From contig CAWANH010000028.1 in the NCBI GenBank assembly GCA_963783375.1, forward strand, positions 1,088,001 to 1,152,000: a stretch of DNA of 64,000 bases. The letters are read 5' to 3'. Below the pieces are notes generated by a model. That model did no database searches. It saw only the letters and a program-made list of their open reading frames with translations, and was not told where the DNA came from. Source of the stretch: Candidatus Eiseniibacteriota bacterium (lineage in GTDB: Bacteria; Eisenbacteria; RBG-16-71-46; JABDJR01). This document shows, piece by piece, positions 29,881 to 58,660 of the stretch. Positions within the stretch are counted from its first letter, which is position 1. Each line of letters begins with the position of its first letter. Both the position numbers and the translations under genes were made by a program.

Positions 29881-31320
29881 ATGGAAGCACTTCTCACCGC
29901 CGTGGCGTTCCTGGTCGTGACTGCGGCCTCGGTGATCTGGCATCTCCGGCGGACGGGGGTGGCGGCGGGTCCCGCCGCCCCACCGGCCGGGCCCCCGTGC
30001 CCGCGCTGCCACGCCGCGGTGCCCGCCGAGGCCACGTTCTGCCCGGCCTGCGGCGTGCCCCGGCAGATCTTCGAGGTCGTCACCGCGCAGACCGTGGACC
30101 CCTCCGCCCCGAAGTCCAACCGCGGCGTTGACGGGCCTCTCCACGCCCTGGTGCGCGCGGACCGGTGCGTGGGGTGCGGGACCTGCGTGGCCGCCTGCCC
30201 GGAACCGGGAGCGATCGCTCTCAAGGGGAAGGTGGCGGTGGTGGACAAGAACGTCTGCGTGGGCCACGGGGAGTGCGTCCAGGCCTGCCCGGTCGGCGCG
30301 GTCTCCATGGCCGGAGGGGAGGCGGTCCAGCGGGTCGAGGTTCCGGAGGTCGACGCGGGTTTCCAGTCCAACGTGCGCGGTCTCTACATCGTGGGGGAGC
30401 TGGGGGGGCGCGGCCTCATCAAGAACGCGATCAACGAGGGGAAGATCGCCGCCGAGGACGTGGTGCGGGCGCTTCCTCCCGGGGAATCGCGCGCCGACGG
30501 CCGGGACGACGTCCTTGATCTGGTGGTGGTGGGGTCCGGTCCGGCCGGCCTCAGCGCCGGGTTGGAGGCCCACCGCACCGGTCTTCGCTACGCCGTGCTC
30601 GAACAGGGCACCCTGGCCGACACCATCCGCAAGTATCCGCGGCGAAAGCTCCTCCTGGCCGAACCGGTTCGTGTCCCGCTCTACGGCGATCTGTGGGTCT
30701 CGGATGCCTCCAAGGAGACCCTGCTCCAGGTCTGGGAAACCATCATCGCCAACACCGGCCTGAGCGTGCTCACCGAGCACCGCGTGGGGAACGTGCTTCG
30801 CGAGGGCGAACTCTTCCGCGTCACCACCGACCGGGGCGACTTCCTGACCCGGCGCGTGGTGCTCGCCCTCGGCCGTCGCGGCACGCCCCGGCGGCTCGGC
30901 GTTCCCGGCGAGGAGCTGGCCAAGGTGACCTACGACATCGTGGAGATGGAGGTGTTCGCGGGGCGGCGGGTCCTGGTGGTGGGTGGGGGAGACAGCGCGG
31001 TGGAGTCCGCGCTGGGTCTGGCCAACCAGCCGGGGACCGAGGTGTACCTCTCCTACCGGGGCGCTGAGCTTTCCCGCGTCAAGGAACGGAACCTGACGAA
31101 GCTGGACAAGGCGCTGGCCGCGGGCAAGGTGACCATGCTCTACGAAAGCCGGATCGTGGAGATCGGCGAGGGGGAGGTGATCCTGGACGTCGCGGGGGAG
31201 ACACGCCGACTCCCCAACGACCACGTCATCATCCGGATCGGGGGCGATCCCCCGTTCAGGTTTCTCGAGCGCATCGGGGTGCGGTTGGTCCAGAAGGACG
31301 TGCCGCTGGTCTCGGCTTGA
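29881..31320 (+). CDS. Membrane-anchored 2x[4Fe-4S] ferredoxin / FAD-NAD(P)H oxidoreductase (TrxR/YpdA-like)
   Basis: N-terminal TM helix; Zn ribbon; CVGCGTCVAACP and CVGHGECVQACP; GSGPAG; VGGGDSA. Confidence 0.88.
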   Translation: MEALLTAVAFLVVTAASVIWHLRRTGVAAGPAAPPAGPPCPRCHAAVPAEATFCPACGVPRQIFEVVTAQTVDPSAPKSNRGVDGPLHALVRADRCVGCGTCVAACPEPGAIALKGKVAVVDKNVCVGHGECVQACPVGAVSMAGGEAVQRVEVPEVDAGFQSNVRGLYIVGELGGRGLIKNAINEGKIAAEDVVRALPPGESRADGRDDVLDLVVVGSGPAGLSAGLEAHRTGLRYAVLEQGTLADTIRKYPRRKLLLAEPVRVPLYGDLWVSDASKETLLQVWETIIANTGLSVLTEHRVGNVLREGELFRVTTDRGDFLTRRVVLALGRRGTPRRLGVPGEELAKVTYDIVEMEVFAGRRVLVVGGGDSAVESALGLANQPGTEVYLSYRGAELSRVKERNLTKLDKALAAGKVTMLYESRIVEIGEGEVILDVAGETRRLPNDHVIIRIGGDPPFRFLERIGVRLVQKDVPLVSA

Positions 31321-33392
31321 CCGCGGGTCGATCGCGGACGCCCGCCGGTTTCGCGGCGGCCATTACCCTCATGGGGGTCTTGATGCTCCTGGGTTCGACA
31401 GTCCGGGTTTCGGCCCAGATCTCTCCCGGCGACCTCTCCCGGGAGCACCAGGATCTGAGCGGCCCGCTCAACTGCCTGAAGTGCCACGCCGGGAAGTCCG
31501 ACGCGATGGACGCGAACTGCCTCGCCTGTCACGCCGGGATCGCGCAGTTGAAGGAGAAGAACCTCGGGCTCCACTCCCGGACCGGCAAGGACCGGTGCGC
31601 TACCTGCCATCCCGAACATGCGGGCCGGGACTTCAAGCTCGTCGCGTGGGAGGGCGGATCGCCCGAGAAGTTCGACCACGGACGCACCGGCTGGACGCTC
31701 CAGGGCAAGCACGCGACCAAGGTTTGCCGGGATTGCCATCAGGCCAAGTACCGGACCTCACCGGTGACCCGGGTGATGAAACGGAAGGATCTCTCGGGGA
31801 GCTGGTTGGGTCTTGAGACCGCCTGCGCTTCGTGCCACGAGGACCTTCATCGCGGCGCCCTCGGAGGGGACTGCGCCCGGTGCCACGGCTTCGAGGCCTG
31901 GAAGCCGGCCGCCGCCTTCGACCACGCCGCCACCGCCTACCCCCTGACCGGAAAGCACGCGACCCTCGAGTGCGCCAAGTGCCACCTGGCCCCGGGTCTC
32001 GATCTGGCCCGGGACGGGAAGGGCCGGCCCATTCCCCTCTACAAACCGCTTCGCCACGACGAGTGCAGCGCCTGCCACCGCGATCCCCACGAGAACCGGC
32101 TCGGGCCCGCCTGCGGCAAATGCCACGTCACCGAGGGGTTCAAGAAAACGGCCGCGGGGGGGTTCGATCACGGGGTCACCCGGTACCCCCTGGCCGGCCG
32201 CCACGTCGGGCTGGAGTGCGCGAAGTGCCACGATCCGGTGAAGGCGTGGGGCAAGCGCCCGGCCTTTGCCCGCTGCGACGATTGCCACCGGGATCCCCAC
32301 GCCGGTGAGACCCGCCTGGCCGGAAAACCCGCGGATTGCGCGGCCTGCCACGCCGTCTCGGGGTTCCGCCCCTCGACCTACACCGTGGACCGCCATCGCG
32401 AAGCGGCCTACCCCCTGGAGGGAAAGCATCGCGGCGTGGAGTGTCGCGGGTGCCATCTCCTCAAGCCGGCGAAGGTGCCGGCGGAGAAGCTGGGAGCGGC
32501 GGGGATCCTCATGCGCCCCCGCTTCGCCACCTGCCGCGACTGCCACGCCGAAGCGCACGACGGCCAGCTCACCGGCCGCGCCGACGGCGGCGCCTGCCGG
32601 ACCTGCCACGCTCCCTCGGGCTGGAAACCGAGCCTCTTCACCGTATCGGACCACGCGACGCTCAAACTTGCGTTGGAAGGCAGGCACGAGGAGATCGCCT
32701 GCGCCGCGTGCCACGGCCCCCGCCGCCGCGATCTTCCGGTTCTTCCCGGCCCCGACACCACCGGGACCGCCGGCGTGATGTTGGCGTTGGGGAGCGGCGC
32801 GTGCGTGACCTGCCACGTCGACCCCCATTTCGGCCGCTATGATCGCCCCGCCGAGGCCTCGCCGCCGGGCGGTTGCCGCGCCTGCCATGCCGCCTCGACG
32901 TTCCGCCCCGCGACCGTCGGCGTGGAAACCCACCGGGAGTATTCCTTCCCCCTGGAAGGGGCGCATCGCGCGGTGCCGTGCACCGGTTGCCACCGGGAAC
33001 TCATGCGGCCGCCCCTGTCCTCGACCTTGGTCGGCGCGGGGGTGAAGCTCGTCCCCCTCCGGTTCAACCAGCACCGAAGCGCCTGCCGGGATTGCCACGA
33101 CGGGCCCCACGGGACGCAGTTCGCGGTTAGGGCGGACAAGGGGGCCTGCGGGACTTGCCACGGGGTCGACGCCTTCGCTCCCGCGGACCACTTCGACCAT
33201 GACCGGGACACGGCGTTCGGCCTCCGAGGCGCCCACGCGAAGGTGGCCTGCGCCGAATGCCATCCCTCACGGAAAGACGCGGACGGAGTGGAGCGGATCC
33301 GCTACCGCCCTACTCCCACCGAGTGCGAGAGCTGTCACCGGGGCGGTCGGCCCGGGACGGGGTCCCGCCGGAACGGGGGGGGCGGATCATGA
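31317..33392 (+). CDS. Multiheme cytochrome c, 23 CxxCH
   Basis: Signal peptide then 'QISPGDLS..H'; 23 CxxCH counted; repeated 'FDH...PL.G.H' His spacers. Confidence 0.95.
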   Translation: MTAGRSRTPAGFAAAITLMGVLMLLGSTVRVSAQISPGDLSREHQDLSGPLNCLKCHAGKSDAMDANCLACHAGIAQLKEKNLGLHSRTGKDRCATCHPEHAGRDFKLVAWEGGSPEKFDHGRTGWTLQGKHATKVCRDCHQAKYRTSPVTRVMKRKDLSGSWLGLETACASCHEDLHRGALGGDCARCHGFEAWKPAAAFDHAATAYPLTGKHATLECAKCHLAPGLDLARDGKGRPIPLYKPLRHDECSACHRDPHENRLGPACGKCHVTEGFKKTAAGGFDHGVTRYPLAGRHVGLECAKCHDPVKAWGKRPAFARCDDCHRDPHAGETRLAGKPADCAACHAVSGFRPSTYTVDRHREAAYPLEGKHRGVECRGCHLLKPAKVPAEKLGAAGILMRPRFATCRDCHAEAHDGQLTGRADGGACRTCHAPSGWKPSLFTVSDHATLKLALEGRHEEIACAACHGPRRRDLPVLPGPDTTGTAGVMLALGSGACVTCHVDPHFGRYDRPAEASPPGGCRACHAASTFRPATVGVETHREYSFPLEGAHRAVPCTGCHRELMRPPLSSTLVGAGVKLVPLRFNQHRSACRDCHDGPHGTQFAVRADKGACGTCHGVDAFAPADHFDHDRDTAFGLRGAHAKVACAECHPSRKDADGVERIRYRPTPTECESCHRGGRPGTGSRRNGGGGS

Positions 33393-36300
33393 GAGGGTGG
33401 AACGGGTTCCTGGCTCGTCTGTGGTCCCGGCGTCCTGGTTGGCGGCTCATCCGCCCGGGGTTTGTGCTGGTCGGCGTGTTCATCGTCTTCGGGGGAGGGA
33501 TGATCTGGGATGCGGTCGGAGCGGGGGCGGACGATGACGAGCCCAAGTACCCGCACGGGTCGTTCCAGGCGGAGTGCAGCATGTGCCACTCCTCGGAGGG
33601 ATGGAAACCGGCACAGATCGGCAAGCAGTTCAAACACGAGAAATACGGGATGCCTCTCGACGGGGCGCACGCCGAGACGCCGTGCCTGTCCTGTCACCGG
33701 TCCCTGGAATTCGCGGACAGCGGCACGCAGTGCGCCGAGTGCCACCAGGACGTGCACAACAGCGAGTTGGGAACGGAGTGCGCGGATTGCCACACCACCC
33801 GGAGCTTCGGGGATCGATCCCGGATGGAGGACCTCCATCAGCTCACCCGGCTGCCCCTGACCGGCGCGCATGCCACGCTGGACTGCGCGGATTGCCACGT
33901 GTCGCAGGCGAAAGGGAAGGGGACCTTCGCCGGGGTGGCGGCGGAATGCGCGTCGTGCCACCTGGCCCGCTACGAGGCCGTGGAGGATCCTCCCCATGAG
34001 GCAGACCACTTCTCAACGGAATGCTCCCTCTGCCACGGCACGTCGAGCTGGAACGGCGGCGCCTTCGAGGCGGCCGGCCTGACGGAGTTCGATCACGGGG
34101 CGACGCTGTTTCCCCTGACCGGGGCGCACACCCGAACGGAGTGCATGACGTGCCATGGGGGTGGGGTATACCGGGGGTTGAGCACGGAGTGCGCAACCTG
34201 CCACCAGTCCGACTACGACGGGACCACGGACCCGGATCATCAGGCCGCCGGGTATCCCTTGGAGTGTGCGAATTGTCACGGCACTGAGAGCTGGTCGGGA
34301 GCGGACTTCAATCACGATGAGACCGGGTTCCCGCTCACCGGGGCTCATGTGGTCCAGCAGTGCCAGAGCTGTCACGGGGGTGGGGTGTACCAGGGGCTGG
34401 GCACGAAGTGCGCGACCTGCCACCAGACCGACTACAATGGGACGACCGAACCGGTGCATAGCGCGGCCGGGTTCCCGGTCACCTGCCAGGACTGCCACAA
34501 CACGACCAACTGGGACGGCGCGACGTTCGACCACAGCACCCAGACCCAGTTCCCCCTCACCGGCGCGCACGTCGCCCAGCAGTGCCAGAGCTGCCACGGG
34601 GGTGGGGTGTACCAGGGGCTGGGCACGGAGTGCGCAACGTGCCACCAGGCGGACTACGATGGGACGACCGAGCCGGTTCACAGCGCGGCCGGGTTCCCGG
34701 TGACCTGCCAGGACTGCCACAACACGACGAACTGGGACGGGGCGACGTTCGATCACGACAGCCAGACCCAGTTCCCGTTGACCGGGGCGCACATCACCCA
34801 GCAGTGCCAGAGCTGTCACGGGGGTGGGGTGTACCAGGGGCTGGGCACGGAGTGCGCAACGTGCCACCAGGCGGACTACGATGGGACGACCGAGCCGGTG
34901 CACAGCGCGGCCGGGTTCCCGGTGACGTGCCAGAACTGCCACAACACGACCAGCTGGGACGGGGCGGTTTTCGATCACGATAGCCAGACCCAGTTCCCGC
35001 TCACCGGCGCGCACGTCGCCCAGCAGTGCCAGAGCTGCCACGGGGGTGGGGTGTACCAGGGGCTGGGCACGGAGTGCGCAACCTGCCACCAGGCGGACTA
35101 CGATGGGACGACCGAGCCGGTTCACAGCGCGGCCGGGTTCCCGGTGACCTGCCAGGACTGCCACAACACGACGAACTGGGACGGGGCGACGTTCGATCAC
35201 GACAGCCAGACCCAGTTCCCGTTGACCGGGGCGCACATCACCCAGCAGTGCCAGAGCTGTCACGGGGGTGGGGTGTACCAGGGGCTGGGCACGGAGTGCG
35301 CAACCTGCCACCAGGCGGACTACGATGGGACGACCGAGCCGGTGCACAGCGCGGCCGGGTTCCCGGTGACGTGCCAGAACTGCCACAACACGACCAGCTG
35401 GGACGGGGCGACGTTCGATCACGACAGCCAGACCCAGTTCCCGTTCACCGGGGCGCACATCGCCCAGCAGTGCCAGAGCTGCCACGGGGGTGGGGTGTAC
35501 CAGGGGCTGGGCACGGAGTGCGCAACCTGCCACCAGGCGGACTACGATGGGACGACCGAGCCGGTTCACAGCGCGGCCGGGTTCCCGGTGACCTGCCAGG
35601 ACTGCCACAACACGACGAACTGGGACGGGGCGACGTTCGATCACGACAGCCAGACCCAGTTCCCCCTCACCGGGGCGCATATCGCGGCTCAATGCCAGAG
35701 CTGCCACGGCGGCGGGGTGTACCAGGGGCTGGGCACGGAGTGCGCGACCTGCCACCAGGCCGACTACGACGGGACCACGGATCCACCTCACGACCCGGCC
35801 GGGTTCCCGGTGACCTGCCAGGACTGCCACAACACGACGAACTGGGACGGGGCGACGTTCGATCACGACAGCCAGACCCAGTTCCCGTTGACCGGGGCGC
35901 ACATCACCCAGCAGTGCCAGAGCTGTCACGGGGGTGGGGTGTACCAGGGGCTGGGCACGGAGTGCGCAACGTGCCACCAGGCGGACTACGATGGGACGAC
36001 CGAGCCGGTGCACAGCGCGGCCGGGTTCCCGGTGACGTGCCAGAACTGCCACAACACGACCAGCTGGGACGGGGCGGTTTTCGATCACGATAGCCAGACC
36101 CAGTTCCCGCTCACCGGCGCGCACGTCGCCCAGCAGTGCCAGAGCTGCCACGGGGGTGGGGTGTACCAGGGGCTGGGCACGGAGTGCGCAACCTGCCACC
36201 AGGCGGACTACGATGGGACGACCGAGCCGGTTCACAGCGCGGCCGGGTTCCCGGTGACCTGCCAGGACTGCCACAACACGACGAACTGGGACGGGGCGAC

Positions 36301-39193
36301 GTTCGATCACGACAGCCAGACCCAGTTCCCCCTCACCGGGGCGCATATCGCGGCTCAATGCCAGAGCTGCCACGGCGGCGGGGTGTACCAGGGGCTGGGC
36401 ACGGAGTGCGCAACCTGCCACCAGACCGACTACGACGGGACGACCGACCCGCCCCACGATCCGGCCGGGTTCCCGGTGACCTGCCAGGACTGCCACAACA
36501 CGACGAACTGGGACGGGGCGACGTTCGACCACGACACCCAGACCCAGTTCCCCCTCACCGGGGCGCACGTCGCCCAGCAGTGCCAGAGCTGCCACGGGGG
36601 TGGGGTGTACCAGGGGCTGGGCACGGAGTGCGCGACCTGCCACCAGTCCGACTACGACGGGACGACCGAGCCGGTTCACAGCGCGGCCGGGTTCCCGGTG
36701 ACCTGCCAGGACTGCCACAACACCACGACCTGGGACGGGGCGACGTTCGACCACAGCACCCAGACCCAGTTCCCCCTCACCGGCGCGCATGTCGCCCAGC
36801 AGTGCCAGAGCTGCCACGGGGGTGGGGTGTACCAGGGGCTGGGCACGGAGTGCGCAACCTGCCACCAGACCGACTACGACGGGACGACCGAACCGGTGCA
36901 CAGCGCGGCCGGGTTCCCGGTGACCTGCCAGGACTGTCACAACACCTCGGCCTGGGACGGCGCGACGTTCGACCACGATACCCAGACCCAGTTCCCGTTG
37001 ACCGGGGCGCACATCACCCAGCAGTGCCAGAGCTGTCACGGGGGTGGGGTGTACCAGGGGCTGAGCACCGAGTGCGCGACCTGCCACCAGACCGACTACG
37101 ACGGGACCACGGACCCGCCCCACGACCCGGCCGGGTTCCCGGTGACCTGCCAGGACTGCCACAACACGACGAACTGGGACGGGGCGACGTTCGACCACAG
37201 CACCCAGACCCAGTTCCCCCTCACCGGGGCGCACATCACCCAGCAGTGCCAGAGCTGCCACGGGGGTGGGGTGTACCAGGGGCTGGGCACCGAGTGCGCG
37301 ACCTGCCACCAGTCCGACTACGACGGGACCACGGACCCGCCTCACGACCCGGCCGGGTTCCCGGTGACCTGCCAGACTGCCACAACACGACGAACTGGGA
37401 CGGGGCGGACTTCGATCACGATACCCAGACCCAGTTCCCGTTGACCGGGGCGCACATCACCCAGCAGTGCCAGAGCTGCCACGGCGGCGGGGTGTACCAG
37501 GGGCTGGGCACGGAGTGCGCGACCTGCCACCAGACCGACTACGACGGGACGACCGACCCGGCCCACGATCCGGCTGGGTTCCCGGTGACCTGCCAGTCGT
37601 GCCACAACACGACGAACTGGGACGGGGCGACGTTCGACCACAGCACCCAGACCCAGTTCCCCCTCACCGGCGCGCACGTCGCCCAGCAGTGCCAGAGCTG
37701 CCACGGGGGTGGGGTGTACCAGGGGCTGGGCACGGAGTGCGCGACCTGCCACCAGTCCGACTACGACGGGACGACCGAGCCGGTTCACAGCGCGGCCGGG
37801 TTCCCGGTGACCTGTCAGGACTGCCACAACACGACGACCTGGGACGGGGCGGTTTTCGATCACGACAGCCAGACCCAGTTCCCGCTGACCGGGGCGCACA
37901 TCACCCAGCAGTGCCAGAGCTGCCACGGCGGCGGGGTGTACCAGGGGCTGGGCACGGAGTGCGCGACCTGCCACCAGGCCGACTACGACGGGACCACGGA
38001 CCCGGCCCACGACCCGGCCGGGTTCCCGGTGACCTGCCAGGACTGCCACAACACGACGAACTGGGACGGCGCGACGTTCGACCACAGCACCCAGACCCAG
38101 TTCCCGCTCACCGGGGCGCATCATCGCGGTCCAATGCCTGAGCTGCCACGGCGGCGGGGTGTACCAGGGGCTGGGCACCGAGTGCGCAACCTGCCACCAG
38201 ACCGACTACGACGGGACCACCGACCCGGTGCACAGCGCGGCCGGGTTCCCGGTGACCTGCCAGGACTGCCACAACACGACGACCTGGGACGGCGCGACGT
38301 TCGACCACAGCACCCAGACCCAGTTCCCGCTCACCGGGGCGCATCTCGCGGTCCAATGTCTGAGTTGCCACGGCGGCGGGGTGTACCAGGGGCTGGGCAC
38401 CGAGTGCGCAACCTGCCACCAGGCCGACTACGACGGGACGACCGAACCGGTCCACAGCGCGGCCGGGTTCCCGGTGACCTGCCAGAACTGCCACAACACC
38501 ACGACCTGGGACGGCGCGACGTTCGACCACAGCACCCAGACCCAGTTCCCGCTCACCGGGGCGCATCTCGCGGTCCAATGTCTGAGCTGCCACGGCGGCG
38601 GGGTGTACCAGGGGCTGGGCACCGAGTGCGCGACCTGCCACCAGACCGACTACAATGGGACGACCGAACCGGTGCATAGCGCGGCCGGGTTCCCGGTGAC
38701 CTGCCAGAACTGTCACAACACCTCGGCCTGGGACGGCGCGACGTTCGACCACAGCACCCAGACCCAGTTCCCCCTCACCGGCGCGCACGTCGCCCAGCAG
38801 TGCCAGAGTTGCCACGGGGGTGGGGTGTACCAGGGGCTGGGCACGGAGTGCGCGACCTGCCACCAGTCCGACTACGACGGGACGACCGAGCCGGTTCACA
38901 GCGCGGCCGGGTTCCCGGTCACCTGCCAGAACTGTCACAACACGACGACCTGGGACGGGGCCACCTTCGACCATGACGCATCGTTCTTCCCGATCTACTC
39001 GGGGAGTCATAGTGGACGATGGAGCGATTGCACCGACTGTCACACCAACAACACGAATTACACCGATTTCACCTGCCTGAGCTGCCATCCGCACGATGAC
39101 AAATCCAAGACCGATGGGGACCATCGGGGCAGATCCGGATACCAATACGACAGCCAGGCTTGTTATTCATGCCATCCCCGGGGGAGCCACTAA
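33389..39193 (+). CDS. Giant tandem-repeat multiheme cytochrome c (~1934 aa, 76 CxxCH after correcting a -1 at ~37375 and a +1 at ~38122)
   Basis: ATG at 33389 overlaps the upstream stop; ORF pieces 33257..37444, 36136..38679 (middle part) and 38159..39193 join into one repeat protein; stop overlaps the next ATG (TAATG). Confidence 0.9.
34325..38975 (+). repeat. Coding tandem repeat, 21 x 222 bp (74 aa, 3 CxxCH per unit)
   Basis: First Cys codon of each unit recurs at 34361+222n up to 38801 (offset by -1 between the two indels). Confidence 0.95.
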
Positions 39194-40821
39194 TGACTCG
39201 GTGGGCGAGCGCGGCGCTTACCGTGATCGCGACCGTGCTGGCCTGCCTGGGGGCGCCGTCCCCCGCCCCGGCTGCCGTCGACAACACCTCCATGGCCGAT
39301 AGCAGTGCCCACGTCACCTACGTCACCGGCGACTTGATCTATGTGGACGCGGGACGGCAGAGCGGCCTGGGGGAGGGTCTGGAGCTACAGGTCGAGCGGG
39401 ATGGGAAGGCGGTGGCCACGCTCAAGGTGGAGCACCTCTCCTCCCATCAGGCCTCGTGCTCCGTGATCGGAGATCCGGTCGAGGTGAAGATCGGGGATGT
39501 CGTCCGGTTCCGACCGGTTCCTGCCAAGACGACCGGCGAGAATCCGTCGCCGGCGGCGAGCCGGGCAAATCCCGGCCGGACCGGCTCGGTATCGACGATG
39601 CAGGCGCTCCGGGCCCTGGGTTTCCGGGGACGGGTCGGGGTCCGGTACCTCACCCTGATGGATCAGACCGGGTCCGGCGCCGGCTTCTCCCAGCCCGCGC
39701 TGGACCTCCGGGTGTCCGGGACCCGGATCAACGGGAGCGACCTGGACCTCTTGGTCGATGCCCGGGCGCGCCGTACCTACCGGACGGACGCGAACGGGGG
39801 GCAATCCAACGACGGACGGACCCGCTTCTATCGGCTGAGCCTCTCCCGCCGGGCCGAGGGCTCACCCCTGCGGCTGTCCCTGGGTCGGCAGGTATCCCCC
39901 GACCTGGCCTCGGTGAGCCTCTTCGACGGCCTCCTGGGGGAATACGCAAGACGATCCGTGGCCTTCGGGGTCTTCACCGGTACCCAACCCGATCCCAAGA
40001 CCTACGGCGCCTCGAGCGAAGTGTTCGAATATGGGGGCTATGCCCGGGTGCAGGGCGCGCAGGCCGGAGTGGGCCGTTGGGCGCTCACCGGAGGAGCCAT
40101 CCAATCGCTGGTGAGGGGAGCGGTGAACCGGGACTATCTCTTCCTACGCGGCCGGTACATGAACCGCCGGATGTTCGGGTACCTGACCCAGGAGATCGAC
40201 ATCAATCGCGGCTGGAAGGCGAAGGCCGGCGAACCCCTGCTGACCCCGACCAGCACCTACCTGAACCTCCGCTATCAGCCGGCACCGGCATTGAGTTTCA
40301 CCGCCGGCTTCGACAACCGCCGGAACGTCCGGCTCTATCGGGACCGCGATACGCCGGAGACGGTGTTCGACGACAGCTATCGCCGAGGGCTCCGGGGCGG
40401 GGTGAGCGTGCGCTTTCTGGACCGGTTCCGGGTTGGGGGAGACGCCGGGATCCGCGGCGGGGGCGGGAGCGGCGATTCGAAATCCTTCACCTTCACCACC
40501 CGCATCTCCCGGCTGTCTCCGCTGGCCGTCGATCTGAGCACCCGGCACACGCGCTACACCGGCCCACTCGCCGACGGCTGGCTGCACACGGTTCGGGCGG
40601 GCGGTTCGATCGGCAGGCGGAACCGACTGGAACTGCACGCGGGGGGGAAGCGGGAAGACCGGTTCACCGGACCCGAGACCTCGGCGCAGACGACGTGGCT
40701 CGGTGCCGACCTGGACCTCGGCATCGTGACCGGCTGGTACCTCCTTCTCTCGGGAGAGTCCACCCGGGGAGACGTCGAAAAGAACGACCAGGTCTACACC
40801 AGCTTGTCCTACCGGTTCTGA
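39193..40821 (+). CDS. Predicted outer-membrane beta-barrel protein with N-terminal FlgT-C-like domain
   Basis: Signal peptide; 'IYVDAGRQSGL..G'; alternating amphipathic strands; C-terminal beta-signal 'YTSLSYRF'. Confidence 0.8.
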   Translation: MTRWASAALTVIATVLACLGAPSPAPAAVDNTSMADSSAHVTYVTGDLIYVDAGRQSGLGEGLELQVERDGKAVATLKVEHLSSHQASCSVIGDPVEVKIGDVVRFRPVPAKTTGENPSPAASRANPGRTGSVSTMQALRALGFRGRVGVRYLTLMDQTGSGAGFSQPALDLRVSGTRINGSDLDLLVDARARRTYRTDANGGQSNDGRTRFYRLSLSRRAEGSPLRLSLGRQVSPDLASVSLFDGLLGEYARRSVAFGVFTGTQPDPKTYGASSEVFEYGGYARVQGAQAGVGRWALTGGAIQSLVRGAVNRDYLFLRGRYMNRRMFGYLTQEIDINRGWKAKAGEPLLTPTSTYLNLRYQPAPALSFTAGFDNRRNVRLYRDRDTPETVFDDSYRRGLRGGVSVRFLDRFRVGGDAGIRGGGGSGDSKSFTFTTRISRLSPLAVDLSTRHTRYTGPLADGWLHTVRAGGSIGRRNRLELHAGGKREDRFTGPETSAQTTWLGADLDLGIVTGWYLLLSGESTRGDVEKNDQVYTSLSYRF

Positions 40822-50099: not shown

Positions 50100-52208
50100 T
50101 TACCGGAGCCGGACGATCCGCGCGGTCCCCGTCCGGTCCCCGTCCCGGACCAGGGCAAAGTAGACGCCCTGGGCGGCGGGGAGCCCCTGAAGGTCGGTGC
50201 CGCCCCATTCCACCGACGCACTGCGGCCTCCTGTGGGTGGGAGCGTGCGTTCCCACACCAAGCGCCCGTCTACCGAGAACACCCGCACCTCGGCGGGGAA
50301 GACCCCTGATGACTCCCAGGTGATCCGGCTCGGACCGGCGGTGGGGTTGGGTCCCACCGTGAGCGCCAACCCGTGCCGCGTCCCCGACCGGGCCGCGATC
50401 GCCAGGCCGGCGGCCAGCGCGCCCTGGATGTCCAGCCGGCCCGCCCCCCAGAGATCGCGGTCGGTGGTGGTGCTGTCCCGACCGGCGCCCTTGGTGAGCA
50501 GGGTGCGGAAGAGGCCGGAGTCCATGTCTGGGAAGGCCTGCTTGAGAAGCGCGGCCGCGCCGCCCACGAATGGGACCGAGGCGCTGGTGCCGCTGAAGGG
50601 GGCGAAGGCGACTTGGTGGGCGGAATCGGGAGGCGCGGCGGGGGCCAGAATCCGGATCCCCGGGGCGGCGATGTCCAGCACCGGGTAGCCGTCGATCCGG
50701 GGCCCGGACCCGCTGAACCACGCCACGTCGTCGTTGAGATCGCTGTCCCAGTCAGCCACGGTGATGGCGGAGTCGGCCAGGCCCAGACCTTGCACGGTGT
50801 ACCTGCCGTCGTCGTCCGGCCATCCGAGCGTATCGGTGGGCAGCTCCACGAAGGCGTACCCGTGGATCGTGCGCGCTTCGCCGGGGAAAGAGAAGACCCA
50901 CCGCGCTCCGTTCCGTCCGGACTGTGGGACGGCCAGTGGAATGAGATTGAGCCAAGTCCCTCCTCGGAAGGCATCGTACACACTCACCAGGAAATCAAAA
51001 CCGTCCCGATCGTACTCGCCGTCCACGATCGGCAGAGTCATTTCCCTTCCGAGCGGGTTTTCGAGGTGAAGCAACCGAGGAGGGTCCCCGATCCAGGTGA
51101 ATCTGGGAAGGGATCCGTCCGAGAGGTACACGCGGGGCTCTCCACCAGCCAGCAAGACGTGCTGCAGCCTACCGCGACCGTTGCCGGCGGCGGCGATGAA
51201 GATCAGACCTTCCCGGGAGCGCTCATCGATGAGGGACTCGTCCCAGCCGGAGCCGTTCCCGGGCAAACCGCCCCCGTATTCATCGATGACGATGCCGGCT
51301 CCCTCGCTCCGGGCCCATGGGAGATCCTGGATCCGGTGTTCCATGAAGATCACCAGGTCCGCATCCGGGGCAATCCCGGTCAGCTTGTGCCTTCCCGGCC
51401 AGCCCCCGGCGAGGATCCCGCAGACCGGTGTGCAGTGCCATCTCCCGGGTCCCGGCATGTGTCCCACCAGGTTCTCACCCCGGCGGTACACCGTAGCTTC
51501 CCTGCGAATGGCCCGGACCTTGGATGTTCCCAGCCCGATGAGCACCTCACCCGGGTCGAGCCGGTCGTTCTCGTCGGCGTCGTCCATGATGAAGAGGCGT
51601 TCCCCGTAGGACGGATCCTGTTCCCCGAACCGCGGGGGCCCGTACTCGCGCGCCCCATCGCCGTCCTGGTCCTGGAACAGGAAGTCGTAGCCCGCCTGGA
51701 ACCTCGTAGTGTCACGGTCGGGAGCGGTGATGCCCTCGCTCTGGATCCAGCCCAGGGTCTCGTCCGGGTCCTTGACCCCGTTCCCGTTCAGATCGACCGC
51801 GTCGCCGGGGCTGAAATCACCGCTCCGGTCCACGTCCAGCCAAACGAAGGTGCCCCCGTCGTCCTTCAAGAGCATGGGTTGGTAGACGTCGACGTCGCCG
51901 TCGAACACGGCGACAACGACGCCCTTTCCGGTGAGCGGAGTCCCGTGCGCATCGAGAGCCTTCCATACGGACTCCGCCCCAACCCGCTCACGGGCGCGGT
52001 AGAGGTTCCGCTGGAGTTCCGGGGGATCGCCCCGTCGGTCGGCGCCCGCGGCGTCCGGCCCCGACCGCCGCCAGGGACTGGGCGGGAACCCGTGGAACGC
52101 GCCGGGAGAGGCCCGGAAGCCGACGGACGCGGCGCGGATGGGCTGCGACCGCGTCGATCCCGGGAAAAGGATCAGCAGCGCGGCCGCGAGGCTCGCGGCC
52201 ACGTGCAT
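50100..52208 (-). CDS. Secreted S8 (subtilase) peptidase with DxDxDG-rich insertion and FlgD-Ig C-terminal domain
   Basis: 'VAVFDGD', 'HCTPVCGILAG', 'AAAGN', 'FSGTSASVP'; C-terminal 'GPNP...DGRLV...WGG...GVYF'. Confidence 0.85.
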   Translation of the reverse strand: MHVAASLAAALLILFPGSTRSQPIRAASVGFRASPGAFHGFPPSPWRRSGPDAAGADRRGDPPELQRNLYRARERVGAESVWKALDAHGTPLTGKGVVVAVFDGDVDVYQPMLLKDDGGTFVWLDVDRSGDFSPGDAVDLNGNGVKDPDETLGWIQSEGITAPDRDTTRFQAGYDFLFQDQDGDGAREYGPPRFGEQDPSYGERLFIMDDADENDRLDPGEVLIGLGTSKVRAIRREATVYRRGENLVGHMPGPGRWHCTPVCGILAGGWPGRHKLTGIAPDADLVIFMEHRIQDLPWARSEGAGIVIDEYGGGLPGNGSGWDESLIDERSREGLIFIAAAGNGRGRLQHVLLAGGEPRVYLSDGSLPRFTWIGDPPRLLHLENPLGREMTLPIVDGEYDRDGFDFLVSVYDAFRGGTWLNLIPLAVPQSGRNGARWVFSFPGEARTIHGYAFVELPTDTLGWPDDDGRYTVQGLGLADSAITVADWDSDLNDDVAWFSGSGPRIDGYPVLDIAAPGIRILAPAAPPDSAHQVAFAPFSGTSASVPFVGGAAALLKQAFPDMDSGLFRTLLTKGAGRDSTTTDRDLWGAGRLDIQGALAAGLAIAARSGTRHGLALTVGPNPTAGPSRITWESSGVFPAEVRVFSVDGRLVWERTLPPTGGRSASVEWGGTDLQGLPAAQGVYFALVRDGDRTGTARIVRLR

Positions 52209-57270: not shown

Positions 57271-57448
57271 AAGGGTACTGTGAATTTTGACCCAAATCGA
57301 ATAGATAAAACAGTTATCCATGAACGGGATGCAGGATGGGAGCCCGGGCCAACTAGAATTACCGGAGCAACTTGGGTTCGCAACGAGCTCCAGCCCCCGG
57401 GTCTGATCGGGGACGGGTGAGGGGGGTTCGTCACCAGGAGGTTCCGGA

Positions 57449-58594
57449 ATGGCCCGCCGCTCCCGCCTTGTCCTCTCCGTGTTCGCCTTGTCGCTCGTCT
57501 TCTGCGCCGCATCCGCCCTTGCCGATGACGGGCCGGGCGCGTTCTCCACCTCTTCCATTCACTCCGGGGGGCGCATGCGCTCCACCCACGGGGTTTTCTC
57601 CATCGCCGGCGGCGCCTATCCCGACGCCGAGCCCCGCTATCACAACGGGAGCGAGCTGGTGTGTGGGGACTGCCACGTCATGCACGCTTCCCAGACCCAT
57701 CCCTACGATCCGGCGGGCGCGAGGCCGGGGGAGGAGGTCCCCTACGCCGGAGGGCCCAACCCGAAGCTCCTGAAGGTCCCCGACCCTCTCGATCTCTGTC
57801 TCAACTGCCACGACGGCCGCACCTTCGCCCCCGACGTTCTCGGGGCGGACGTGAACGGCCTCGTCCAGCGCTCGGCGGGACACTTCGACGAGCCGGAGCT
57901 GGCCAACCCCCGCGGACACGACCTGGGCCGGGGCCTCCCCGACGCCGAGGGATTCGGCCTCTGCACGCGGTGCCACTTCTCGAGCGGCGAGGACGCCAAG
58001 GTCACCTGCATCGACTGCCACAACCCGCACGGGAACGGGGTGGCCCGGAACCTCCAGTGGGCGAGCGATCCCACGTCCACCCCGGACCTGGGGCTCTTCG
58101 TGAACCCGGGGGCGAGCGGGCTGGCCCGCTACGAGGCTTCGAACGTTTCCTTCGGGACCCTGAACACCGACCAGCTCCGCGAGGTCACCAACATCTGCCT
58201 CGACTGCCACCACATCTTCTCGGGGGAATCCTACATCGACCCCGACGGCAACGGGTTCCACAACCGCCATCCCACCTACGACAGCGAGCGCGGGTCGATC
58301 AACTCCATCAGCCAGGGGGACGCCGACGGGCGGACCAATTCCCCCCACTGGCTGGGAGGGACCGGGTCGGGGTTCATGGGGACGCCGCGGCTCCGCTTCG
58401 TGGCCTCCGGGGCCACCGACTTCGCCTCCGGGACGGTCGTGGACGCGGACAACGACGGGGTGTTCTGTTTGAGCTGCCACACCGCCCATGGAAGCGATCA
58501 GGCCTTCGCCCTGACCTGGACGCTCCAGGACGGATACGGCGCCCCCGGCTGCGACCAGTGTCACTACGTGGCCCAGGTGGACGCGGCCCCCTAG
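57449..58594 (+). CDS. OmcS-like multiheme cytochrome c, 7 CxxCH
   Basis: Signal peptide; 'YHNGSELVCGDCHVMH', 'CLNCH', 'GH', 'CIDCHNPHG', 'RHP', 'VFCLSCHTAH', terminal 'CDQCH'. Confidence 0.85.
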   Translation: MARRSRLVLSVFALSLVFCAASALADDGPGAFSTSSIHSGGRMRSTHGVFSIAGGAYPDAEPRYHNGSELVCGDCHVMHASQTHPYDPAGARPGEEVPYAGGPNPKLLKVPDPLDLCLNCHDGRTFAPDVLGADVNGLVQRSAGHFDEPELANPRGHDLGRGLPDAEGFGLCTRCHFSSGEDAKVTCIDCHNPHGNGVARNLQWASDPTSTPDLGLFVNPGASGLARYEASNVSFGTLNTDQLREVTNICLDCHHIFSGESYIDPDGNGFHNRHPTYDSERGSINSISQGDADGRTNSPHWLGGTGSGFMGTPRLRFVASGATDFASGTVVDADNDGVFCLSCHTAHGSDQAFALTWTLQDGYGAPGCDQCHYVAQVDAAP

Positions 58595-58629: not shown

Positions 58630-58660
58630 GAGCGCCCCGCGGGAGATCCGCGGGGCGCTC
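58630..58660. terminator. GC-rich hairpin between convergent genes
   Basis: GAGCGCCCCGCGG-GAGAT-CCGCGGGGCGCTC; no U tract. Confidence 0.55.

Follow-up and report, generated by a model that had tools for sequence, protein, structure and literature searches.

In OmcS (Geobacter sulfurreducens GSU2504; PDB 6EF8/6NEF), the hexaheme subunit of a cytochrome nanowire, 11 of the 12 heme ligands are described as internal and one as coming from the neighbouring subunit, with a repeat of about 4.8 nm and a heme stack that runs in motif order (PMC6584659). Section 6 of PMC12977616 places a maturation/secretion gene block next to omcS and describes the OmcS paralogues OmcT, OmcJ and GSU2501, whose function is unknown and which accompany the wire-type gene, often in tandem. 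OmcZ is described as a 'leaky' nanowire with eight hemes, all ligated within the subunit, and a branch heme off the main chain (PMC9473688). Section 9 of PMC13712944 predicts a five-heme OmcE-like family of uncultured bacteria from many phyla, in which an insulated-wire fold carries one added CxxCH motif. The Discussion of that paper treats how cytochrome nanowires start, stop and hand over their electrons as an open question and reports no tip candidate in OmcE operons; in its view, an ideal anchor would resemble the ordinary subunit but carry an additional histidine, and a possible tip would have more exposed hemes.

The window analysed here, 64,000 nucleotides of a contig from the Eisenbacteria, contains a gene for a seven-motif cytochrome c with the OmcS fold (P0001), encoded in a single reading frame of 381 aa (Table 1). 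The gene stands alone, with a divergent thiolase/OB-fold pair on one side and a convergent transketolase gene on the other, and, unlike omcS, lies outside any export-gene operon of the source genome, where no export genes adjoin it. A sigma-70-like promoter was looked for at the gene and none was found, and the terminator scan made no call on its 3′ side. The likely signal peptide, whose cleavage site after Ala25 was judged by eye, contains a helix over residues 4-23 in the structural model, and a lipobox-like pattern occurs in only 6 of the 121 family proteins. About 5 kb from the gene, at about 50100-52100 (−) of the window, lies a peptidase frame that we take to be subtilase-like from its catalytic-serine motif.

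An earlier note on this DNA had listed the heme motifs of P0001, counted CTRCH as a seventh motif and described an N-terminal extension of ~40 aa. All the quoted motifs occur in the order given there (CxxCH at C72, C117, C172, C187, C250, C340 and C368; GH; RHP), and the extension measures 38 aa between the likely cleavage at Ala25 and Tyr64. Seven motifs were found in 117 of 121 proteins (P0001 and its 120 closest homologues) and the other four begin after the first motif or motifs, so the seventh motif is not a chance occurrence; all seven are invariant across the 111-row alignment of close homologues. The note's 106 heme motifs for the window stood as a count of CxxCH matches (106 on the + strand, 0 on the −) and not as a count of heme sites, of which there are at most 105, because the CxxCH at 29998 falls in the zinc-ribbon part of a FAD/4Fe-4S oxidoreductase. 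That oxidoreductase (29881-31320) and a 23-motif cytochrome (31317-33392) lie upstream of a giant repeat cytochrome at 33257-39193 (+), whose 51 + 9 + 14-15 motifs are broken by two frameshifts inside near-identical repeats. The frameshifts are likely assembly errors, and the intact protein would hold about 75 motifs. Downstream is a 553-aa gene without a family match (39160-40821).

Table 1. Features of the P0001 gene and its flanks (window coordinates).
Feature	Position	Strand	Basis or remark
Ribosome-binding site AGGAGG	57436..57441	+	7 nt ahead of ATG, from sequence
Seven-motif OmcS-fold cytochrome c gene (P0001)	57449..58594	+	Profile and fold matches
Likely Sec signal peptide, residues 1-25	57449..57523	+	Basic start, hydrophobic helix, Ala-x-Ala end; by eye
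N-terminal arm, residues 26-63 (38 aa), variable tether	57524..57637	+	Not in six-heme relatives
His38, sole near-invariant arm residue (110/111)	57560..57562	+	Alignment; candidate self-capping ligand
His65 (OmcS His2), motif 1 C72-H76 and His79 (OmcS His16 equivalent)	57641..57685	+	His79 is candidate inter-subunit donor
Motif 2, C117-H121	57797..57811	+	Alignment with OmcS
His157 (OmcS His110 equivalent; GH at 156-157), invariant	57917..57919	+	Alignment
Extra (seventh) motif C172-H176, CTRCH	57962..57976	+	Loop is APGG stretch in OmcS and six-heme relatives
OmcS motif 3 equivalent C187-H191 and His194 (OmcS His147)	58007..58030	+	Alignment
OmcS motif 4 equivalent C250-H254, then His255 (Thr in OmcS)	58196..58213	+	His255 likely distal ligand of extra heme
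His274 of RHP motif (273-275; OmcS His257 equivalent), invariant	58268..58270	+	Alignment
OmcS motif 5 equivalent C340-H344 and His347 (OmcS His335)	58466..58489	+	Alignment
Last motif C368-H372	58550..58564	+	Alignment
12-bp G+C-rich hairpin, possible terminator without T-run	58631..58659	.	By eye; between P0001 gene and convergent transketolase gene

Since single-sequence searches of solved structures missed OmcS, both with P0001 (no direct phmmer match) and with its six-heme paralogue P0122, OmcS is within reach only of profiles and folds. It was the best match of a profile built from 111 close homologues (6ef8_A, E 2.3e-6), and a mixed profile that included six-heme relatives covered nearly its whole chain (E 4.7e-14), at an identity of 17-23% between OmcS and P0001. 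An AlphaFold2 model of P0001 (pLDDT 86.6) had OmcS as its top Foldseek match (E 9.8e-4, TM 0.33), and VIA-align against 48,161 chains returned OmcS at Z 13.0 with an rmsd of 3.6 Å over 244 aligned residues, the runner-up reaching Z 5.3. The alignment ran end to end, from residues 64-375 of the model onto residues 1-407 of OmcS, with F1/H2/C9/H16 of OmcS on Y64/H65/C72/H79 of P0001. The homology to OmcS proposed in the earlier note, for which it had suggested an alignment as the check, was thus borne out by significant matches of both profile and structure, and the start of mature OmcS that it had given from recall agrees with residues 1-18 of PDB 6ef8_A.

All six OmcS motifs are present in P0001 in the same order, and His2, His16, His110, His147, His257 and His335 of OmcS correspond to His65, His79, His157, His194, His274 and His347. 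Five of these six are invariant among the close homologues and His79, the counterpart of His16 that was expected to be kept, is present in 110 of 111 rows; in all, 11 histidines outside the motifs are conserved in this alignment. We take the six matched OmcS histidines to be distal ligands and His16 to be the one that acts between subunits, a label reportedly used by Wang and colleagues. P0001 thus shares with OmcS the fold, six motifs, six histidines and a likely signal peptide, but differs in having a seventh motif, His255, a 38-aa arm with His38 and a shorter last spacing, the last two motifs being 28 residues apart in P0001, 38 in most six-heme relatives and 72 in OmcS. Mature OmcS starts one residue before His2, whereas P0001 keeps its arm there. 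Because strict features of OmcS are absent (six hemes, an N-terminus at Phe1 and a position beside the secretion block), P0001 is an OmcS variant and not OmcS itself. The descriptions of OmcT, OmcJ and GSU2501 in section 6 of PMC12977616, as hexaheme proteins, set these paralogues apart from the seven-motif P0001, which likewise accompanies a wire-type gene. An identity as a decaheme MtrA/DmsE protein was ruled out by seven motifs instead of ten, a TIGR03508 score of 43.3 bits against a cut-off of 192.2 and a VIA-align Z of 5.3 to 6r2q_A. The five-heme OmcE-like family is built on the OmcE scaffold (Z 4.2 to the P0001 model), and section 9 of PMC13712944 describes no tethered histidine arm for it.

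The extra motif sits mid-protein, between His157 and motif 3, where it replaces the APGG loop; as the six OmcS motifs and matching histidines are untouched, an extra heme would most simply lie off the main chain. His255 directly follows the proximal histidine of the OmcS motif 4 equivalent, at a place where OmcS has threonine and where none of the 99 six-motif representatives outside the clade has histidine. Across 94 rows of the clade, counted after removal of 12 fragmentary or garbled rows (P0248, P0250, P0254, P0279, P0283, P0297, P0330, P0338, P0341, P0348, P0366 and L050), the seventh motif and His255 were both present in 79, both missing in 13 and present as the motif only in two, and His255 never occurred by itself. 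On the tree the motif changed 8 times and His255 7 times, with three well-supported independent pairs (seven on all branches), of which His255 followed in 2.9 of 3, a sample in which p<0.05 is unreachable. The mid-protein loop position and the tracking with His255 suggest that the extra heme is a side branch on His176 and His255, and a side heme near hemes 3-4, held by these two residues, is quite probable from the alignments. The earlier note had given this heme neither a ligand nor a place. In cytochrome c3, a second histidine right after CxxCH binds another heme; our literature search found no source for a CxxCHH precedent.

His38, His79, His271 and His300 fitted worse than His255 as ligands of the seventh heme and were rejected, being absent in 13 of 78 (one cut by a contig end), 7 of 78, 21 of 81 and 12 of 81 motif-bearing members, respectively. 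As 13 of the 78 motif-bearers lack His38, this residue is not needed for the seventh heme. Two proteins nearer the six-heme family, P0278 and P0351, carry a CxxCH of their own in the same loop without His255, which may mark a hot-spot where such motifs were gained independently. Like OmcZ as described in PMC9473688, P0001 would have a heme that branches from the main chain, but all eight hemes of OmcZ are ligated within the subunit, whereas P0001 folds like OmcS and retains the position that donates to a neighbour; neither Foldseek nor VIA-align listed OmcZ among the matches of the P0001 model.

Within residues 30-63, only [ILV]37-His38 is strongly conserved (histidine in 110 of 111 rows). Between His38 and His65 the sequence varies, as does the length: 19-33 residues across 110 close homologues, 16-29 across 67 members of the clade, and no shorter case. 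With a spacing that never falls below 16 residues, the tether would reach across the 4.8-nm OmcS repeat, and the conservation of the arm is the pattern of a putative ligand on a tether. The arm ends where mature OmcS starts, and the residues ahead of the first motif have a median of 67 in the seven-motif family versus 34 in six-heme relatives. Once His255 is assigned, a single heme still lacks a distal ligand from its own subunit, namely the heme completed in OmcS by the neighbour, and His38 is a candidate ligand for this open heme. A surplus histidine alone is no mark of a cap, as conserved surplus histidines occur in both families, those of the six-heme family being H50, H208, H238 and H273, with roles unassigned. 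When residues 1-262 were modelled alone, with 263-381 removed, the confidence of residues 31-70 fell from 69/68/76/88 to 61/56/57/69, a drop of 8-19, while residues 71-120 and the extra-motif loop at 151-190 were barely altered, which may mean that the arm packs against the C-terminal third; since residues 121-150 and 191-250 also fell, by 7-18 points, this result stays a hint. A joint metal site of His38, His271 and His300 was rejected because the joint patterns disagree, His38 tracking neither of the other two. The 111-row tree had suggested that the arm arose after the seventh heme, and the later tree holding 94 clade rows did not.

The homologue search returned 298 matches among 7,996 candidates scored, and a scan of species genomes found 73 loci of the seven-heme type. 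Seven-heme genes formed one clade of 69 rows in the 111-row tree (SH-aLRT 100, quick search), and with representatives added 94 rows fell on one side and 8 six-heme outgroup rows on the other, again with support of 100. On these trees the seven-heme type is a single clade, present in about a dozen lineages of uncultured bacteria; the locus titles name Eisenbacteria, Zixibacteria, Ignavibacteria, Planctomycetota, Armatimonadota, Gemmatimonadota, Acidobacteriota, Spirochaetota, Poribacteria, Nitrospinota, Fibrobacterota, Glassbacteria and others. Likeness to the six-heme family is highest over residues 64-145 (44%) and at the C-end (39%), and 19-28% mid-protein. Among the 88 clade rows with a full N-terminus, 63 have both His38 and His79, 11 only His79, 4 only His38 and 10 neither. 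Derived members without His79 (L046, L054, L056, L057, L069 and representatives such as P0246, P0249, P0256 and P0262), some of which also lack the seventh motif, His255 or His38, would by their sequence be unable to donate to a neighbour. One Planctomycetales record (L037:9998-12404) carries two seven-heme genes in tandem.

The source genome contains 41 reading frames with at least two CxxCH motifs, 403 motifs in total, and only one other OmcS-like gene: that of P0122 (contig C29:1470775-1471845), a six-heme, armless protein 32% identical to P0001, whose family profile matches OmcS (E 1.3e-7). Its cluster (G000:C29:1455490-1475702) comprises a NapC/TorC-like cytochrome, a tetraheme cytochrome, an NHL beta-propeller, a second six-heme cytochrome, a lipoprotein, a 42-motif cytochrome, a decaheme cytochrome and an apparently split gene (1468772-1469485 and 1467888-1468895) without a family match, for which 'barrel-like' is our inferred label. 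By its gene content the cluster resembles the secretion block beside omcS as outlined in PMC12977616 and PMC13712944; the P0001 gene lies on a different contig, far from it. On contig C28 of the same genome, near 1857984 and 1859614, are two tryptophan-rich motifs that we take to be of the CcmC/CcmF kind, and with them cytochrome c maturation is likely present.

Elsewhere, another OmcS-like gene was found in the fetched DNA at 31 of 71 loci, within 400 bp at 19, at 16 of which it lies directly upstream on the same strand, and the neighbours at the 73 loci include the beta-propeller family (30), the lipoprotein (25), a giant cytochrome (24) and the barrel-like gene (22). Five loci also encode proteins of ~700 aa with 12 motifs whose first half scores as OmcS-like (L010:1441-3537, L011:1410-3518, L012:501-2789, L013:1061-3211 and L016:835-2988), which may be fused adaptors belonging to these clusters. 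The 38 draft genomes that contain the 40 loci lacking an OmcS-like neighbour have a strong six-heme match elsewhere in 28 cases, a split one in 1, a weak or fragmentary one in 4 and none in 5. A survey of the phylum, in which 9 candidates were scored per genome and the genomes are drafts and related, hence not independent, found an OmcS-like match in 74 of 206 genomes: a clade member in 18, only another strong match in 47 and only a weak one in 9. The seven-heme type thus mostly accompanies the six-heme type but the reverse does not hold, which makes it an optional companion, and with 47 genomes having the six-heme type without it, no wire system in the phylum needs a P0001-type gene.

Taking the fold, the tracking of motif and His255, the arm pattern, the companion pattern and the likeness of the N-terminal part to the six-heme family together, we tentatively read P0001 as an optional end-piece, tip or base, of the wire predicted from its six-heme paralogue. 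P0001 would be exported and loaded with seven hemes, six of which would retain the OmcS chain while the seventh, more exposed, would hang off mid-chain on His176 and His255. His79 would bind the open end heme of a six-heme wire in the way that His16 links OmcS subunits, and the tethered His38 would fold back along the subunit onto the open heme of P0001 itself; with that heme closed, no further subunit could add, and the last piece of the wire would offer electrons a way out at its side. Against this stand the 13 of 78 seventh-motif members without His38, the 5 of 38 genomes without a six-heme partner and the 4 with only a weak or fragmentary one, the surplus histidines of the six-heme family, the distance between the P0001 gene and the export-like cluster, and covariation that rests on few pairs. 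The broader proposal that the whole clade is a widespread family of self-capping end-pieces, with His79 joined to the wire, His38 sealing the last heme and the side heme contacting minerals, electrodes or cells, and with derived copies lacking His79 and/or His38 serving as opposite-end pieces or free carriers, is more doubtful.

Rather unlikely, yet the most serious competitor, is the filament variant proposed in the earlier note, here as an in-line 'leaky' subunit that would stack head-to-tail through His79, either with its own kind or interspersed with the six-heme paralogue, and add one side heme per copy, its arm lying along the surface with His38 on a neighbour's heme or a metal, so that an insulated OmcS-type wire would turn OmcZ-like. 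The near-universal His79 of the close homologues would suit such a subunit, as would the likeness of both protein ends to the six-heme family; in addition, 8 of 88 clade members, with the seventh motif and His79 present and His38 missing, look as an ordinary subunit should. A lone gene behind a divergent intergenic stretch could moreover be a separately regulated second wire, and section 9 of PMC13712944 predicts the same design for the five-heme OmcE-like proteins. It would, however, leave a near-invariant tethered His38 without a target, and 14 of 88 clade members have lost His79, versus 2 of 97 representatives outside; the six-heme family has 10 residues more in the loop ahead of the last motif, and the clade is seldom found without a six-heme relative.

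A carrier that does not polymerise, acting as a monomer or small oligomer in the periplasm or at the cell surface, with all hemes satisfied internally and electrons shuttled to or from a conduit or wire, appears improbable. The 11 conserved histidines outside the motifs would suffice for seven hemes internally, His38 is kept while His79 is lost in 4 of 88 clade members, the gene has no export genes beside it, and section 6 of PMC12977616 gives no known part in wires for three of the four OmcS-like proteins in G. sulfurreducens. However, the strong conservation of His79 and of the first module, where the protein most resembles the six-heme family, suggests that an interface has been retained, and of the genes in the export-like cluster the beta-propeller gene adjoins 30 of the 73 loci and the barrel-like gene 22.

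Very improbable is a removable propeptide, in which His38 would block the open heme during export against early polymerisation until a protease cut the arm and an OmcS-like N-terminus polymerised: OmcZ is processed by a protease, and the arm stops exactly at the mature OmcS start and is variable except for His38, but the 22 most frequent neighbour families of the 73 loci include no protease family as judged from representative sequences, no conserved cleavage motif precedes Tyr64 across the family, and six-heme relatives do without an arm.

In print, what comes closest is the predicted five-heme OmcE-like family, together with the plea for anchor and tip proteins in the Discussion of PMC13712944. 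Our literature search found no description of a seven-heme OmcS relative; Wang et al. 2019 and Shen et al. 2025, with their supplements, lie outside it, and Shen et al. could list such homologues. If P0001 is an end-piece, it would define by sequence a family of tips or terminators for cytochrome wires of the OmcS type, of which we found none described, and the clade is a concrete candidate for the ends of such wires, with residue-level predictions at His38, His79 and His176/His255. Should it instead be an in-line subunit, a 'leaky' OmcS would exist in nature and could help both to understand side access to the wire and to engineer it. In uncultured Eisenbacteria, Zixibacteria, Ignavibacteria, Planctomycetota and other lineages, the presence of the family is a pointer to electron transfer of the wire type.
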